DNA from: a virus
DNA length: 64,000 nucleotides
Direction: 5' to 3' (one strand)
IMG/VR virus record: IMGVR_UViG_3300012948_000003
Location: 40,445 to 104,444 of that record
The notes under the pieces are model-generated. The model made no database searches. It was not told the origin of the DNA and saw only the letters and a list, made by a program, of their open reading frames with translations. Every line of letters begins with the position of its first letter. Positions within the stretch are counted from its first letter, which is position 1. Shown here piece after piece: positions 8,816-63,259 of this stretch. The position numbers were made by a program, and so were the translations under genes.

Positions 8816-10528
8816 TTATACTCGTACTGGATGCACGATTTCTTCGCATTCGACGCCGTACAGCTCGGTACCTCCTGAATCGGAGCCACTCAGACCTACT
8901 GCATAGCTCTTGACGTCAGGGATATTGAGATGATGAAACGTCCCGTGACTGGTACCTGCTACAAGATTGGAGCCGTAACCACTCGGTGTCGTAATATCAA
9001 GATCGGTAAAGATATCGAGTCGGCAACTCGCGCTCACCATTGCACGAGCACCAATGACGGTCTTTATGAACGCGGCAAAGTTATCACTCTGGAGCTGACT
9101 GACGATTGACCACGTTGTTCCGCTCCCAGTCTCCAGCTGGTAGAGATCGCCACCAGCATTAGAGAACAGCGCTCGACCGCCAACCGTGTCTGTAACAGCA
9201 GTTACAATCGACGCGGGGAAAGTGAACGGCGTATGCCACTGCCGCAGGTACCGACAATAACCAATACCAATTGTGCCCTTGACATAGAAAACAGAATCGC
9301 TAGCAGGATCATAAACAACAATGCAATTCGAAGCATTGTATCCGTTTGTATCGAAGAACTTCATTACTGGTTCGGCGAATGCTGTCGCTTCGTCACCCGG
9401 ATCGCCACCACCAGCAAGACTATCTCGTACGGGACCTCTCGTGCCGACCCATGCGAAGATTTCAGGACCGACAACGCAGAGTTGATTGGCCGATACCAAT
9501 CCAGTCGTCGGCCAGATCGGACGAATGTTTAAAGGTGAGATGTCGCTTTGGCTAGCGGTCACAAGGTTCAGCGATGAAGCAGTCGCGATCAGTACAGCTC
9601 CTTCAATACCGCTTCCCTTCACCGCTGTTACTGTGCCGCCACCCGGAACAAACACAACAAACCGGGCCGGGAACGACTCGGGCTTATTCGGATACGAAGG
9701 TGATAGTCCTGCCCCGCCATAGCAACCAACAGCAACAATGACTGCATTGATAGCGCAGCAGAATGTACACGGAGGCGGGAGATCATTATCCAACGGCGCA
9801 AGATCGCCGAGCATTCCGTCTGTCCATCCAGCGTGAGGATAACCGTCTACTTGAAGATTGAATGGAACAACGAGATCGACAAGGTCTACATCCATCAAAT
9901 GATATAGTGGACCAATCTCACCGAAGCCTTGCTTTGTAGCGTAGATTCCAACTCGGTCCGTGCCTGTCGGGAACGACGGTAGCGCCGTGATCTGAATAGT
10001 ATGATAACGAGTGAAGACCGCATTGGACGGCGGACCAACTGAACTCTCGCCACCAGTAATCGATCTGATAGCAGTGAGCCCAATCGAGTATAGACCTTTG
10101 GTGAATGCCTCTTTCGGTGAGGCGAGATTAACTTCTATTGTAGGTGCGCCCGGTGCAGCCATCCCGGCTTGCACTGCCGACGCGCCAGTCCAGATCGTAA
10201 TCGTCCCGCCCATCACTGAGCCGACCGATGATCCATCAACGAACGCTTCGCCAGCTCCCGCGTAGAAGTAGATGCCGTCACCGAACGCCTGTACAATACT
10301 TCCGCCACCCGTGAGACCACCCCATGTATCAGCAACGTTCAGTAAAGGATTAACACCTCCGCTATTTGCAACAGAGCTGCCAAAGCCTCTAGCACTGACC
10401 AGAAGACCCGAGCCGCGATTCCAGACATTTTGACCTCCCAGCAGACACTCCGGGACTCCCATGACTTTCGCCGTGGTCGGCCAGTATCCTCGCGGCCATG
10501 CGAATCTCGACTGTGAACGTTCAGGCAA
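8816..10528 (-). CDS. Putative tail nozzle / tail tubular protein B-like
   Basis: 570 aa, beta-rich, downstream of adaptor-sized genes; call rests mainly on position and size. Confidence 0.45.
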   Translation of the reverse strand: MPERSQSRFAWPRGYWPTTAKVMGVPECLLGGQNVWNRGSGLLVSARGFGSSVANSGGVNPLLNVADTWGGLTGGGSIVQAFGDGIYFYAGAGEAFVDGSSVGSVMGGTITIWTGASAVQAGMAAPGAPTIEVNLASPKEAFTKGLYSIGLTAIRSITGGESSVGPPSNAVFTRYHTIQITALPSFPTGTDRVGIYATKQGFGEIGPLYHLMDVDLVDLVVPFNLQVDGYPHAGWTDGMLGDLAPLDNDLPPPCTFCCAINAVIVAVGCYGGAGLSPSYPNKPESFPARFVVFVPGGGTVTAVKGSGIEGAVLIATASSLNLVTASQSDISPLNIRPIWPTTGLVSANQLCVVGPEIFAWVGTRGPVRDSLAGGGDPGDEATAFAEPVMKFFDTNGYNASNCIVVYDPASDSVFYVKGTIGIGYCRYLRQWHTPFTFPASIVTAVTDTVGGRALFSNAGGDLYQLETGSGTTWSIVSQLQSDNFAAFIKTVIGARAMVSASCRLDIFTDLDITTPSGYGSNLVAGTSHGTFHHLNIPDVKSYAVGLSGSDSGGTELYGVECEEIVHPVRV

Positions 10529-10955
10529 CGTTTATATCCTCGTCGGCTGTCGCGTTAGTGTGTCCGCACATAAAACAGACGTACTGCCAAACTACTTTGC
10601 CATAGCGCGGACTCCAGTAACGAAACTGCTTGAGATAGTTTTTACCGCGTTCGAACTTTGGTTTTGCGTTCTCGTTTCGGGTGTAATCAGCCCTGTCGAT
10701 CATGTATTCACAGTTGCATCGCGCTGCGTCGTCTGCCCTCTCTGCGATCATCAACTTCTTGATCCACTCTTGTTCAGGATCACCTGCAACCTTTAGCGCG
10801 TCTTCAAAGCGACCTAGTCTACAGAGCGACTGGACAAGCGTTACTCGCGCATGTGCTTCCTGTCGTTGCGCAAGCAAGAGCATTGTCTCGTCGCGTGTAA
10901 GACCCTTCATTTGAGCCGGGGAATGCGGTTCTTCTACTGGAGTGTAGGTATGCAT
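10521..10955 (-). CDS. Hypothetical protein with Cys motifs (CxC, CxxCGH)
   Basis: ORF in the minus-strand operon; likely start MHTYTP. Confidence 0.5.
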   Translation of the reverse strand: MHTYTPVEEPHSPAQMKGLTRDETMLLLAQRQEAHARVTLVQSLCRLGRFEDALKVAGDPEQEWIKKLMIAERADDAARCNCEYMIDRADYTRNENAKPKFERGKNYLKQFRYWSPRYGKVVWQYVCFMCGHTNATADEDINVA

Positions 10956-59237: not shown

Positions 59238-59584
59238 AGGTCCACGCTCGAAAGCGTAGCGGCGAACAAGGCAATGCGAGCCCTTCAAGCCGACCACATC
59301 TTGCCTCAGCCGGGCGATACATCCTGACAGAAACGCTAGGTCGGCGATAAGCCGAAGACAGCTAGGTGGATTCAAACGGTCGCGGGACGATTGGGCGCTG
59401 CGTGGTGCGCTAGCAGGTTGCCGATAGGGCATCCTGCCTCAGAAGCCTACCTACGATAACGAGATCAACGAATCCCCAGCTCGGATACTCCAAAGAACCG
59501 AAGAGACAAGCGCAGTGGCGCTGCGCAACATAAATCAAAGTCTGACATCTCAGAGTTCAAACCGTGAGTCCGACCGAAGCAAAT

Positions 59585-59623
59585 GCCCGAACTGGTTCTG
59601 CGGGTTCGATTCCCGCATCGGGC
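59585..59623 (+). ncRNA. tRNA-like minihelix (acceptor-like stem plus T-arm)
   Basis: GCCCGA...GCGGG-TTCGATT-CCCGC-A-TCGGGC. Confidence 0.55.
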
Positions 59624-59661
59624 TTAGACGAAAATTTTCTTTTAAAAGAAAGGAGACTTCA

Positions 59662-59856
59662 ATGAATAACACGTTGACCCCAGCCTACGGACGAGATTAC
59701 AAAAGCAAGGCGGCAGTCGAAGCTGACTTTCGCGCCAACAAGGACTTCATCGTAGCTATTAGTGGTAAGCCGATTAACATCGAGCAGCTATCGAAGGGCG
59801 AGCGAGTATCGATCCGCTACGATAGACTGCGCAAAGTTGTGATCCTTACTGTCTAG
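59662..59856 (+). CDS. Early hypothetical protein (PAYGRDY family)
   Basis: LTPAYGRDYKSKAAV..DF...KDF; RBS AAGGAG. Confidence 0.7.
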   Translation: MNNTLTPAYGRDYKSKAAVEADFRANKDFIVAISGKPINIEQLSKGERVSIRYDRLRKVVILTV

Positions 59857-60089: not shown

Positions 60090-60629
60090 ATGTACGCAGT
60101 ATACACAAAGCTGAAAGACGGTTCGTGGGGAATATGGTCCGACTTCGATATGCAGCCGGGCGATACAGTCACAGTAACGAAGCGCAATCAAGAGACGAAG
60201 CAAGAGATCGTCGGCGAGATCGTTCTCGTAGAGCGTGGTATGCAGCAACGCGTTTCCGTAGTCGCAAAGATCGCTCCTCGCGCTAAAGCAGTAGTCGCAG
60301 TTGAAGACGAAGGCGTCTACGTGATTGGTGACGGAATGGAAAACGTCATCAAGGTTAAGAAGTCGAAAGCTGGTAACCTGTATGCTCTCCGTCTCAAAGA
60401 GACTGGCGGAACGCGGATCACTGAGGTTGGCGAAGTGGTCAACTTCGAGTGGGAGTATGCACCGGGTCTTATCAAGGACATCAAGCCGGAACAAAAGATG
60501 TCCTTCGAGCAAGCGAAGGCGTTCGGCGTTCGCTTCGGGAAGTGCGTGAGATGTAATCGACATCTCAAAGCTGCTGAGTCGGTCGAGAAGGCGATTGGCC
60601 CGGTATGCGCGAAGTGGTTCGGAGTATAA
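60090..60629 (+). CDS. DUF6011-like Zn-finger protein
   Basis: GKCVRCNRHL...ES...IGPVCAK. Confidence 0.75.
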   Translation: MYAVYTKLKDGSWGIWSDFDMQPGDTVTVTKRNQETKQEIVGEIVLVERGMQQRVSVVAKIAPRAKAVVAVEDEGVYVIGDGMENVIKVKKSKAGNLYALRLKETGGTRITEVGEVVNFEWEYAPGLIKDIKPEQKMSFEQAKAFGVRFGKCVRCNRHLKAAESVEKAIGPVCAKWFGV

Positions 60630-60632
60630 CGA

Positions 60633-60672
60633 CTCACGTTGGACCTCGGGCGGGTTCGATTCCCGCCGTGAG
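60633..60672 (+). ncRNA. tRNA-like minihelix 2
   Basis: CTCACG...GCGGG-TTCGATT-CCCGC-CGTGAG. Confidence 0.55.
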
Positions 60673-60705
60673 CATACGGAATTTAAATTACAAAGGAGAC
60701 CTCGA

Positions 60706-61041
60706 ATGAAGTTCAGTGAATTCAATGACAATGAACTCGGTGATTGGGCTGGGAACTGTACTCGATGTGGCGGACAGTTTCCGACGCGGACCTCTGGTCT
60801 TAAACCGGGCGTTCCAGTCTGTACTAGCGCGAGAGATTGTGACGCTAATCTCGCGGTCGCTCCGTTTCCTATCGTCGCCGATTACATCTTTATGATGCAA
60901 CATGCCGAACGCTATGAAGCAAACGGAGTACGTAACGCCGCTGCGCTCTGGCGCAATGCTGCGCAACACGTTGCCGAGTCAATCAACGAAGAGGGTTGGC
61001 TCAACTACGAACAGGTCACTGGCAAAAGGAGACCTCAATGA
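60706..61041 (+). CDS. Early hypothetical protein (Cys motifs)
   Basis: Start motif AAGGAGACCTCGAATG. Confidence 0.6.
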   Translation: MKFSEFNDNELGDWAGNCTRCGGQFPTRTSGLKPGVPVCTSARDCDANLAVAPFPIVADYIFMMQHAERYEANGVRNAAALWRNAAQHVAESINEEGWLNYEQVTGKRRPQ

Positions 61042-61253
61042 ATGTATACAGCGTGAAGGCGTACGGACAGTTATACCTGCTCGCTACGCAAGGATTCAGA
61101 ACTTCAATGGAAGTTGCCCGAACACTTGAAGAGCGGGGCATCGTTGCGGACGTAACGAAGTCTGATGTTCCGTTCGGTACTGTCGGGATGCACTTCTATG
61201 GTTTCGGCGGATTGGTTCAACAGATCAATTCAGGGAGGGACATCGCATTATGA
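61038..61253 (+). CDS. Early hypothetical protein
   Basis: Start motif AAGGAGACCTCAATG. Confidence 0.6.
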   Translation: MNVYSVKAYGQLYLLATQGFRTSMEVARTLEERGIVADVTKSDVPFGTVGMHFYGFGGLVQQINSGRDIAL

Positions 61254-61501
61254 TGATAGATTGTACCGAGTGTCATCGACGCATTGATATTCACGACGCT
61301 GAGAATTGCCCGGTGTGTAAGGCTCACGATCTCTGCGCTGTGTGTATTGGAGATCACGAAGAGAAGCACGGCGTAGAGATCAACGGTGAGACCGCAGTAG
61401 TGATTCGCGGTTGCGGTGATGCGCACGACGGGTATTGCCCGGATGATAGAGACGACGAACCCGACTGGGATCGTAAGCTCGATGAACGGGAGGACAAGTA
61501 G
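61250..61501 (+). CDS. Cys-rich acidic small protein
   Basis: Three CxxC-type motifs. Confidence 0.55.
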   Translation: MMIDCTECHRRIDIHDAENCPVCKAHDLCAVCIGDHEEKHGVEINGETAVVIRGCGDAHDGYCPDDRDDEPDWDRKLDEREDK

Positions 61502-61652
61502 TACGCTTCTAGTTGGCTGAGCGTATCAGCCGACTTCCAGCTCGGACTGAGATAAGCGCAGTCCAACAAGTTTCAAGTGTCCGGGTTCGTATGGATACAA
61601 TATCCTTTAGGGGAGAAGAAGGCGGATAGCCCTCGCCCGGACAACATCTTTT

Positions 61653-61849
61653 GGGGGTGTTGCCTAACGTCAGCAGATGGCAAGGCAGGCGACTTGACGG
61701 TCGCTGTCTGAAAGCGCAGAGCTGTTACGGCTCGTCTTCATCAAGCGAGCACGAACTAAGTTGGATGCGAGTAAGACGCGCAAGTGATGAAGGCTGATGA
61801 CTGGAGTTAACTACGCGATGCGGGTTCGAATCCTGCCACCCCCACGCCA
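61653..61849 (+). ncRNA. Atypical tRNA-like RNA (Ser/Sec-like frame, 114-nt variable region)
   Basis: GGGGGTG/CACCCCC acceptor, GCCT/AGGC D-stem, GGCGA/TCGCT anticodon stem, GCGGG-TTCGAAT-CCTGC T-arm, 3' GCCA. Confidence 0.6.
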
Positions 61850-61866
61850 ATTCAAAAGGAGACCTT

Positions 61867-62085
61867 ATGGCTGAGAAAGAAATCTTCGTGCTTTATATGT
61901 GGGAGCACGACGCATACATTAAGAAGAGCCGCAACGAGTATGGATATGTCGTTGTGCCTCGGAACAGAGCTACTGAATGGAAGACGCGCAAAGCAGCGCA
62001 GCGCTTCAAGGATCAACATTGGGCTCGACTCGGACACTATGCAGATGTCCACAGCGAAGCTCCAGTCACTAACGTTCGTAACTAA
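61867..62085 (+). CDS. Early hypothetical protein
   Basis: Start motif AAGGAGACCTTATG. Confidence 0.6.
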   Translation: MAEKEIFVLYMWEHDAYIKKSRNEYGYVVVPRNRATEWKTRKAAQRFKDQHWARLGHYADVHSEAPVTNVRN

Positions 62086-62095
62086 GGAGACCTCA

Positions 62096-63259
62096 ATGAG
62101 ACCACGTGATTTGCAGAAACTTCTTGCCGTCGCATTCGCGAAGCGCTTATCAGTATTGATTACTGGCGCTCCCGGTGTTGGCAAGACAGACATTGTCCTG
62201 CTGGCTGCTCTTGCCGCAGGATGCAACGTTATTATCAGTCACCCGGTTGTAGCCGATCCTACAGACGCGAAAGGCTTACCGTGGCCCGAAGCTGGAGTTG
62301 AATTCCAGCACGTCATCATTCGCGTTCGAGAGCTGATCGCAGCAGGCTATGATGACGACCAGATCAAACGCGATGTCGAGATCGCGAAAGCACAGATTCG
62401 TAAAGCGACCTTCCTACCCTTCGGCGAATTAGCAGAAGCTATCGAAGCCGACACACCTACAATCTGGTTCATTGATGATTTAGGTCAGGCGCTTCCCGCA
62501 GTACAGGCTTCCTTCATGCAGCTTATCCTTGCTCGACGAGTGAACGGACACAAGCTGCCCGACTGCGTTACATTCTGCGCAGCAACGAACCTTCGTCAAC
62601 ACCGAGCTGGTGTCTCTGGTGTTCTCGAACCTGTGAAGTCTCGGTTTCATACGATTGTATCGCTTGAGCCGAATCACGAAGACTCAATCAACTGGTACAC
62701 TGACAACGGGTATCCGCCAGAGCTGATCGCGTTCCTGCACTGGAAGAAGGACCTTTTGTGGGACTTCCAGCCGACTGCGGATATCATCAACTCGCCGTCG
62801 CCTCGGACGTGGGCGAATGCATCGAAGTGGATCGGTCTCGGTCTTCCGGCTGATATCGAGATGGCTGCGATACAGGGAGCAGTTGGTGAAGGTCCGGGAG
62901 CGGAGTTCGCAGGCTTCTTGAGAGTCTGGAGAGAGCTTCCGTCTCTCGATGGAATCCTTACTGATCCGGATTCGCAAGTCTGGCCCGGTGTTCGGAATCC
63001 TTCTGCGCGATACGCAACTGTTGGCGGTCTCGGTCTTCGAGCGAACCCACAGAACTTTGCTCGCATCGTGAAGTACATCGAGAACAAGATACTGCCCAGC
63101 GACGAAGGTGAAGTATTCGCTGTGCTGCTTGCTCGCGATGCAGTGCGCCGGAATGGTAACATCGCGCATACGCCAGCATTTCATAAGCTAATGGTTGGTC
63201 CTATTGGACACCTGATCATTGGTTCGGACGTTAACCCCACAACAGGAGGTCAAGTATAA
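62096..63259 (+). CDS. AAA+ ATPase (MoxR/AAA_5-like)
   Basis: GAPGVGKT, IWFIDDLGQA, AATN, SRF, SPRTW; true start MRPRDL. Confidence 0.9.
   Translation: MRPRDLQKLLAVAFAKRLSVLITGAPGVGKTDIVLLAALAAGCNVIISHPVVADPTDAKGLPWPEAGVEFQHVIIRVRELIAAGYDDDQIKRDVEIAKAQIRKATFLPFGELAEAIEADTPTIWFIDDLGQALPAVQASFMQLILARRVNGHKLPDCVTFCAATNLRQHRAGVSGVLEPVKSRFHTIVSLEPNHEDSINWYTDNGYPPELIAFLHWKKDLLWDFQPTADIINSPSPRTWANASKWIGLGLPADIEMAAIQGAVGEGPGAEFAGFLRVWRELPSLDGILTDPDSQVWPGVRNPSARYATVGGLGLRANPQNFARIVKYIENKILPSDEGEVFAVLLARDAVRRNGNIAHTPAFHKLMVGPIGHLIIGSDVNPTTGGQV

Follow-up and report, generated by a model that had tools for sequence, protein, structure and literature searches.

What does a tRNA-shaped sequence do between two protein-coding genes of a phage that carries no canonical tRNA? 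This question is raised by an oversized tRNA-like element, hereafter elem3, in the genome of an uncultured phage. The window analysed here is the final 64 kb of its 104,444-bp IMG/VR virus record, which is rated complete by CheckV. A sequence-only reading had described the element as a tRNA mimic with a giant structured variable region and had offered a decoy, a tRNA-scaffolded sRNA or an unusual Ser/Sec-like tRNA as possible roles. The analysis presented here points, with moderate confidence, to another role: elem3 would derive from a tRNA, would not decode, and would mark sites at which RNase P and RNase Z process the transcript.

Genomic context of elem3

Nearly all window genes up to approximately position 59,000 are carried by the minus strand. 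From approximately 59,100 to the window end, a block of small genes, equipped with strong Shine-Dalgarno sites, runs rightward, and a gene encoding a MoxR-like AAA ATPase comes after the small genes. Within this block, elem3 occupies the 365-nt gap separating an 83-aa gene from a 72-aa gene. The features of the locus are listed below (window positions).

61250-61501, plus strand: upstream gene, 83 aa, Cys-rich, without family assignment
61578-61642, plus strand: Y-shaped hairpin (predicted fold) with a GC-rich, 7-bp closing stem GUCCGGG/CCCGGAC, 10 nt 5' of elem3
61653-61844, plus strand: elem3, oversized tRNA-like element, 192 nt up to the discriminator A (from the sequence; the fold keeps acceptor and T arm)
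61653-61659, plus strand: acceptor 5' strand GGGGGTG, with U at -1; 7/7 Watson-Crick pairs with CACCCCC at 61837-61843
61662-61686, plus strand: D-like arm, 4-bp stem GCCT/AGGC and 17-nt loop retaining A14, G18G19 and A21
61688-61705, plus strand: anticodon-like arm, 5-bp stem GGCGA/TCGCT and 8-nt loop CTTGACGG, closable to a UGAC tetraloop
61706-61819, plus strand: 114-nt insert at the variable-region position, without detectable excess structure and without homologue
61820-61836, plus strand: T arm GCGGG-TTCGAAT-CCTGC, fitting GGTTCRANYCC (local match of 11.5 bits to the covariance model R1 described below)
61837-61849, plus strand: acceptor 3' strand CACCCCC, discriminator A (61844), then CGCCA
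61867-62085, plus strand: downstream gene, 72 aa, without family assignment; Shine-Dalgarno AAGGAGA, start 22 nt past the elem3 discriminator
62096-63259, plus strand: MoxR-like AAA ATPase (PHROG 1297 at 3e-57, AAA_5), used as the anchor for finding relatives

The open reading frames read normally in code 11. A near-identical start context, AAGGAGAC-YT-YR-ATG, was seen at several genes of the operon, at 59650-59664, 60693-60708, 61026-61040, 61856-61869 and 62084-62098; this shared context appears as a recurring 'KETSM' in upstream read-through frames. The hairpin at 61578-61642 has a fold z-score of -1.25, which is not significant. It is followed by AACAUCUUUU, and its spacing is not that of a canonical terminator.

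elem3 has an intact acceptor stem and T arm

All four tRNA arms recognised by the sequence-only reading are present: a fully paired acceptor stem, a T arm, a D-like arm with a 17-nt loop and an anticodon-like arm with an 8-nt loop. Its other observations on the ends and spacing of the element were also confirmed, namely the 114 nt between the anticodon-like and T arms, the 3' end reading and the missing G3-U70 determinant (pair 3:70 is G-C). As in a canonical tRNA, the acceptor stem continues without a break into a T stem of 5 bp, which is capped by a loop of the TΨC type. Positions 8-9 are TT, so that U8 is present, and A26 lies between the D-like and anticodon-like arms.

Other parts of elem3 depart from the canonical tRNA. 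The D loop has 17 nt (7-11 in canonical tRNAs) and the 114-nt insert compares with a variable-region limit of approximately 21 nt. In the anticodon-like loop CTTGACGG, which has 8 nt instead of 7, a C takes the place of purine 37. The CCA is displaced by 2 nt, with CGCCA following the discriminator. The first bases of this loop, CTTGA, resemble the CTTGAAA loop of tRNA-Ser(UGA) genes in relatives of the phage; the discriminator is A73, whereas the Ser tRNAs of these relatives have G73.

elem3 is not recognised as a member of a known RNA class

ARAGORN, run at default settings with and without introns, called no tRNA and no tmRNA in the window or in the entire genome, which therefore has zero canonical tRNAs by this criterion. 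Lowering the threshold yielded only 38 scattered permuted-tmRNA calls, none of them at elem3. No Rfam family matched elem3 at its gathering score. In evalue mode, the best match was to the tmRNA model (RF00023), which aligned end to end over 61653-61847 and scored 10.7 bits, the threshold being 47; the E value was 0.036 for a search space of 601 nt. No tRNA match (RF00005) exceeded this score; only weak tmRNA or T-arm matches were returned. The weak tmRNA match comes from the tRNA-like ends of elem3 only. Despite an intact top half, with 7/7 acceptor pairs and a canonical T loop, elem3 is thus rejected as a tRNA by both ARAGORN and Rfam.

In a deletion scan, each internal segment of 60-134 nt was removed and ARAGORN was run on every one of the 5,700 resulting constructs. 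Only marginal calls were obtained (scores of 100-110, the best being 110), with mispaired anticodon stems. Since no deletion restored a well-formed tRNA, a simple intron is excluded. Intron families in Rfam, including group I, gave no match at elem3 and ARAGORN -i300 gave no call; an intron-bearing tRNA, whether of the group I or the bulge-helix-bulge kind, was rejected on these combined results. A tmRNA was rejected because elem3 fails on G3-U70, on the tag frame, on pseudoknots and on size: the judgement that it is too short for a typical tmRNA was borne out, 192 nt being about half the size. The Y-RNA-like family YrlA (RF02553) had no Rfam match at elem3, whose acceptor ends are open and not permuted.

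The ARAGORN and Rfam checks that the sequence-only reading had suggested returned no match above threshold to a tRNA, a tRNA-intron or a tmRNA, and its description of a mimic, as opposed to a normal tRNA or tmRNA, holds. Because CTTGA resembles the loop start of the relatives' tRNA-Ser(UGA), 'Ser-like' can reasonably describe where elem3 came from, but not what it does. That elem3 decodes as a Ser/Sec-like tRNA is unlikely given an 8-nt loop closable to a tetraloop, a 17-nt D loop, a 114-nt insert and A73.

The insert is large but shows no excess structure

Unconstrained folding of elem3 retained the acceptor, T, D-like and anticodon-like arms. In the minimum-energy fold, the anticodon-like stem is lengthened by C-G and U-G pairs, leaving a UGAC tetraloop; the 8-nt loop described earlier is correct as CTTGACGG but can close further in this way. 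The two insert stems proposed by the sequence-only reading are possible, giving a fold of -69.7 kcal/mol, but compete with a minimum-energy fold of -71.9. Against shuffled sequences, the z-score was -0.17 for the insert alone and -1.4 for the entire element. The 'giant' of the earlier description thus stands, but the 'structured' is unsupported, the insert being no more stable than shuffled sequence.

No homologue of the insert was found in any fetched locus or searched collection. No significant complementarity to the insert was found within the genome, the best antisense match being 17 nt (E = 0.37). Two further candidates were tried and rejected. Hammerhead and C/D-box readings of CUGAUGA/GAAA/CUGA in the insert left stem III unpaired and had no Rfam match. 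A MAFFT alignment of the internal elem3 stretch ACTAAGTTGGA to the 5' half of elem2 (see below) was deemed coincidental because the corresponding 3' strand is absent.

Two minihelices with the top-half architecture and position of elem3

A genome-wide T-arm scan revealed that elem3 is accompanied by two smaller elements in the same operon.

59585-59624, plus strand: elem1, tRNA top-half minihelix composed of GCCCGAA, CTGGTTCT, T arm, ATCGGGC and T; ends 37 nt before the ATG at 59662
60632-60674, plus strand: elem2, tRNA top-half minihelix composed of ACTCACG, TTGGACCTCGG, T arm, CGTGAGC and A; begins 3 nt past the stop codon at 60627-60629 and ends 31 nt before the ATG at 60706

Both minihelices (40-43 nt) are built from a 6-bp acceptor-like stem, against 7 bp in a tRNA, an 8-11-nt linker containing UGG, a T arm and an acceptor 3' strand. 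Their T arms are both GCGGG-TTCGATT-CCCGC. The T-arm motif is GGTTCGATTCC in elem1 and elem2 and GGTTCGAATCC in elem3, and both fit GGTTCRANYCC, the motif that defines the t-elements of plant mitochondria. The acceptor stem sequences differ among the three elements, and each is internally paired. All three lie on the same strand, in intergenic positions, within 2.3 kb, and fill the only three sizeable gaps of the operon. A start codon follows at 37 nt (elem1), 31 nt (elem2) and 22 nt (elem3), with a Shine-Dalgarno sequence before each start. No promoter-like site was found on the plus strand beside any of the three.

Four T-arm motifs with a matching acceptor were counted in the real genome, compared with a mean of 0.1 in 40 shuffled genomes, and three of the four are the co-oriented intergenic trio elem1 to elem3. 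elem3 is more than a chance occurrence. The sequence-only reading, which had viewed elem3 in isolation, described its features correctly but overlooked the two minihelix siblings and the fixed site before start codons. The siblings and this fixed position favour a processing signal over a decoy or an unusual Ser/Sec tRNA.

Two further observations concern the surroundings of elem1. A non-coding leader of approximately 340 nt (59240-59584), without a match in Rfam, lies between a promoter-like region (approximately 59190-59235) and elem1; cleavage at elem1 would free this leader as a separate RNA. An AT-rich palindrome found genome-wide, TTCTTTTAAAAGAA, has a copy at 59637-59650, between elem1 and the Shine-Dalgarno site of the first gene of the operon.

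Relatives of the phage carry canonical tRNAs or further minihelices

The closest relative of the ATPase is 60% identical and lies on a 2.4-kb contig, and most relatives are approximately 50% identical; with a best ATPase of only 60% identity, the phage has no close relative in the searched collections. The 60%-identical relative was not recovered in a metagenome scan, and anchoring on neighbouring proteins (72 aa and 179 aa) yielded no relatives in IMG/VR. No elem3 homologue was found by blastn against phages, by nhmmer and blastn-short against all fetched loci, or by exact and gapped patterns in viral, metagenome and genome contigs. The stems of elem3 itself have no covariation support.

In relatives of 120-138 kb, ARAGORN called 17-39 tRNAs in each fetched stretch (12-20 kb); they are interspersed with small genes and lie on the gene strand. 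These tRNAs end in an encoded NCCA. When only tRNAs without another tRNA following were counted, 12 of 59 ended 12-23 nt before a Shine-Dalgarno sequence and start codon. The three look-alikes described here occupy positions where the relatives have real tRNAs.

A distant relative, the 7.8-kb metagenome locus L128 (ATPase 40% identical), carries minihelices in five consecutive gene gaps.

L128, 3665-3707: minihelix
L128, 4083-4124: minihelix
L128, 5151-5194: minihelix
L128, 6059-6129: minihelix
L128, 7270-7326: minihelix

Each of the five begins 2-8 nt past a stop codon and ends 26-30 nt ahead of a start codon. Next to each comes a leader of approximately 25 nt, TTAACCCCTAAATCTCACATACC, that is conserved among the copies, and then a start codon without Shine-Dalgarno sequence; starts of this kind suggest a Bacteroidota-type host for L128. 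Two copies have hairpin inserts in the linker (approximately 14 and 30 nt), at a point equivalent to the stretch between acceptor 5' strand and T arm that is expanded in elem3. In form, these copies are intermediate between the small and the large elements.

The L128 copies differ from each other by compensatory changes in both stems. Covariation was assessed on six minihelices, four from L128 together with elem1 and elem2: 90% of cells were paired, nine of the 12 pairs had changed on both sides, none of 500 shuffles equalled this result, and slid registers collapsed. The covariance model R1, built from the same six minihelices, recovered the fifth, untrained L128 copy at 46 bits; elem1 scored 49 bits, but as a training sequence. 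With elem3, whose linker is 160 nt, the insert is too long for R1, and the T arm was the only part that the model aligned. The assignment of elem3 to the class is therefore based on the top half that it shares and on where it lies, and no model score enters into it. Collectively, these comparisons indicate that the architecture made of an acceptor-like stem, a T arm and a short linker is maintained by compensatory change in elem1, elem2 and the five L128 copies. The trait is sporadic: among relatives of the ATPase, no minihelix was found in the remaining 28 IMG/VR loci, in 100 more loci from metagenomes or genomes, or in five additional records searched over their whole length. The L128-type pattern was not found in IMG/VR.

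Other tRNA mimics in the phage and its relatives

Outside the window, on the minus strand at genome positions 10440-10750 (L150:641-951), two tandem circularly permuted tRNA-like modules lie 3' of a 243-aa gene. Their order is T arm, acceptor 3' strand, 9-10-nt loop, acceptor 5' strand and D arm. One of the two matched the full YrlA model, at genome positions 10464-10574, with 32.6 bits (E = 1e-4), which is below the gathering score of 69. With these tandem YrlA-like permuted mimics in the genome, tRNA mimicry belongs to the repertoire of the phage.

Relatives G002 and G005 (L061:10750-11280 and L064:13200-13745) contain tandem oversized tRNA-like RNAs (124-140 nt) in which the conserved boxes CGACTACAGC, GCTGACTGA and ATACATG recur. 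A module at L061:10905-10986 had a partial YrlA match (27.9 bits). A compensatory change distinguishes the acceptor of the 124-nt copy from that of the 126-nt copy. These RNAs are likely to be multi-module Y-RNA-like genes. Relatives G002-G005 (L061, L063, L064, L066 and L067) also have near-complete tRNA sets with encoded CCA, and in the same loci ARAGORN passes over several 72-75-nt elements whose acceptor and T arms are well formed, among them a trio at L063:17566-17805.

Discussion

RNase P, RNase Z and the CCA-adding enzyme all read their substrates through the acceptor stacked on the T arm and through the elbow, and bacterial RNase P prefers U-1/G+1. This dinucleotide is present in elem1 and elem3. 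CCA directly follows the discriminator in none of the eight elements (elem1 to elem3 and the five of L128), which would suit RNase Z. No phage-encoded CCA enzyme, RtcB or TROVE/Ro60 protein was found in the genome, so any processing would be carried out by host enzymes.

Based on these features, elem3 would be one of three elements punctuating a rightward early operon. Host RNase P would cut its 5' edge at 61652/61653, between U-1 and G+1, and host RNase Z would cut past the discriminator at 61844/61845, where CCA does not directly follow. The two cuts would part the upstream and downstream cistrons, leaving the next mRNA a 22-nt leader with its Shine-Dalgarno sequence, and would release a tRNA-like by-product of approximately 192 nt that might receive CCA. 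For the upstream mRNA, whose 3' end would be newly made by the cut, the hairpin at 61578-61642 might offer protection. Co-transcription, both cleavages and any effect on expression are what we infer from the observed fold elements, their recurrence and positions, the covariation of the minihelices and the tRNA-rich relatives.

Selection would have kept only the top half of elem3, that is the acceptor stacked on the T arm together with the elbow-forming GG of the D loop, while the bottom half would have decayed and expanded into the 17-nt D loop, the 8-nt loop and the 114-nt insert. In the simplest account of its origin, elem3 would go back to a type-II tRNA gene in which selection held the top half while the decoding half degenerated and grew. 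A processing signal needs no bottom half of 150 nt, and this reading leaves the insert unaccounted for.

Could elem3 instead be a decaying tRNA pseudogene, a leftover of the relatives' tRNA cluster disrupted by insertions and without present function? The relatives have many tRNAs in the equivalent small-gene region, the bottom half of elem3 looks degenerate with an insert devoid of excess structure, the displaced CCA (CGCCA) looks vestigial, and no homologue shows conservation. However, neutral decay should strike the acceptor and T arm too, and both are flawless (12/12 pairs, canonical T loop). elem1 and elem2 keep exactly the same half, elem3 is as far from its start codon as its siblings in a compact genome, and L128 shows the architecture held by compensatory change. 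We regard a pseudogene as unlikely. Alternatively, elem3 could be a stable tRNA-scaffolded RNA acting itself, either as a decoy or sponge for host factors that read the elbow or acceptor or as an sRNA with an active insert. The targets envisaged for the decoy are anticodon nucleases, TrmA/TruB, the CCA enzyme and synthetases; in the sRNA version, the tRNA frame would give stability. A cloverleaf fuller than a cutting signal needs (U8, A14, GG, A21, A26, C32, U33) speaks for such an RNA, as do the Y-RNA-like tRNA mimics of the same phage (YrlA model 32.6 bits, E = 1e-4). Against this, the insert is without detectable structure, significant complementarity (17 nt, E = 0.37) or homologue, the loop lacks a normal anticodon presentation, no partner protein was identified, and the phage lacks Ro60/TROVE, RtcB and a CCA enzyme. 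Nothing was found in support of the decoy or scaffolded sRNA of the sequence-only reading, and the sibling minihelices and the position favour a processing signal; we hold the scaffolded RNA, and the decoy targets envisaged for it, to be improbable. A related version, in which elem3 once excised would persist as a stable tRNA-framed RNA of approximately 192 nt with its expanded bottom half either acting as a regulatory RNA or decoying host anticodon nucleases and further enzymes of defence or modification that read tRNAs, is a quite doubtful extension of the processing model.

A working but unusual tRNA would have to be Ser(UGA)-like, a quadruplet or frameshift decoder using the 8-nt loop, or a tRNA with a spliced insert. 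The loop does begin with CTTGA like the relatives' tRNA-Ser(UGA), type-II tRNAs have long variable arms, and the 5' half of elem3 keeps many invariant tRNA bases. The possibility is nonetheless very unlikely: ARAGORN was negative with or without introns, the best of the 5,700 deletions scored 110 with mispaired anticodon stems, Rfam had no group I intron or tRNA match, the D loop has 17 nt, A73 stands in place of G73, the loop closes to a tetraloop, and the open reading frames read normally in code 11. A miniature phage tmRNA was suggested by the end-to-end alignment of the Rfam model (61653-61847, 10.7 bits, E = 0.036) and by the sibling linkers (UGGUUC, UUGGAC), which we take to resemble the D-loop analogue of tmRNA. 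This reading is effectively refuted. The score is far under the gathering score of 47, ARAGORN made no call at elem3, pair 3:70 is G-C and not G-U, no pseudoknot is predicted, 192 nt is too short, and the candidate tags (ASTN* and ARTKLDASKTRK*) lack a hydrophobic, Ala-rich end. In many phage attachment sites the T arm of a tRNA is duplicated together with the 3' strand of the acceptor, and elem3 could in principle be an attP-type copy of a host tRNA 3' end or another DNA-level signal. The attP reading fails because a search of 185,579 species, with one genome for each, did not contain the exact 25-mer formed by T arm and acceptor 3' strand, and because no tyrosine integrase was found in the phage; neither a host tRNA with this 3' end nor a lysogen junction was found. 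The matching 5' acceptor strand, the D-like and anticodon-like arms, and the presence of three copies in one orientation, whose acceptors differ from each other but match internally, also oppose it, making a DNA-level origin exceedingly improbable.

The preferred reading, a processing signal, has precedents in other systems. Plant mitochondrial t-elements are tRNA-like, non-decoding structures with the GGTTCRANYCC motif, found inside transcripts at mRNA borders; their ends have been mapped, cutting by RNase P and RNase Z was proposed, and the released element gains non-templated C/A (Forner et al. 2007, PMC1920247). elem3 resembles them in having this motif within a tRNA-like fold that is not a functional tRNA. 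There is no sequence homology between the two: t-elements are organellar and have experimentally mapped ends, whereas elem3 is a phage element with predicted ends, a 114-nt insert and a remnant cloverleaf. Punctuation by canonical tRNAs, as in the mitochondrial model or with the interspersed tRNAs of the relatives (12-23 nt before starts), uses the same top half and position; unlike a canonical punctuating tRNA, elem3 is without a usable anticodon loop and fails tRNA models.

In mascRNA/MALAT1, RNase P and RNase Z excise a tRNA-like fold from a longer transcript and thereby set the end of the upstream RNA. The released small tRNA-like RNA, a cloverleaf of approximately 61 nt from a eukaryotic nuclear lncRNA, receives CCA. 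It is unrelated to elem3 in sequence, and the likeness lies in the tRNA-like fold, together with the transcript context and the cleavages proposed for elem3. The stable RNAs species 1 and 2 of phage T4 (rnaC/rnaD) are 120-140 nt long, have tRNA-like termini and are processed with tRNAs; their function is unknown. They are likened to elem3 by description, not by sequence, and sit in a tRNA gene cluster whereas elem3 lies between protein genes. Like elem3, tmRNA (RF00023) forms a tRNA-like domain from the two ends of the molecule with a large insert between them; G3-U70, a tag frame and pseudoknots are all missing from elem3, which reaches only about half the length of a tmRNA. YrlA (RF02553) is likewise a tRNA mimic carried by phages, but it is circularly permuted (T arm, loop-closed acceptor, D arm) and ends in a long stem, whereas the acceptor ends of elem3 are open.

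A full-text literature search found no paper describing tRNA top-half mimics as phage intergenic elements or such a mechanism. tRNA-like processing signals are already known; elem3 adds an oversized, cloverleaf-retaining form in a phage without tRNAs. Standard tRNA and Rfam annotation overlooks these elements. elem3 suggests a route by which such signals may originate, with the top half of a whole tRNA kept and the decoding half degenerate. Together with the two L128 inserts, its 114-nt insert suggests that the frame tolerates large inserts, which is relevant to natural and engineered tRNA-scaffolded RNAs. If the effector reading were true, a phage bereft of tRNAs would have repurposed one as an effector RNA. 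If phage mimics direct host RNase P and RNase Z to polycistronic messages, they would play the part that RNase III sites play in T7-type phages, and this would explain the persistence of tRNA-shaped sequences in phages that no longer need extra tRNAs.
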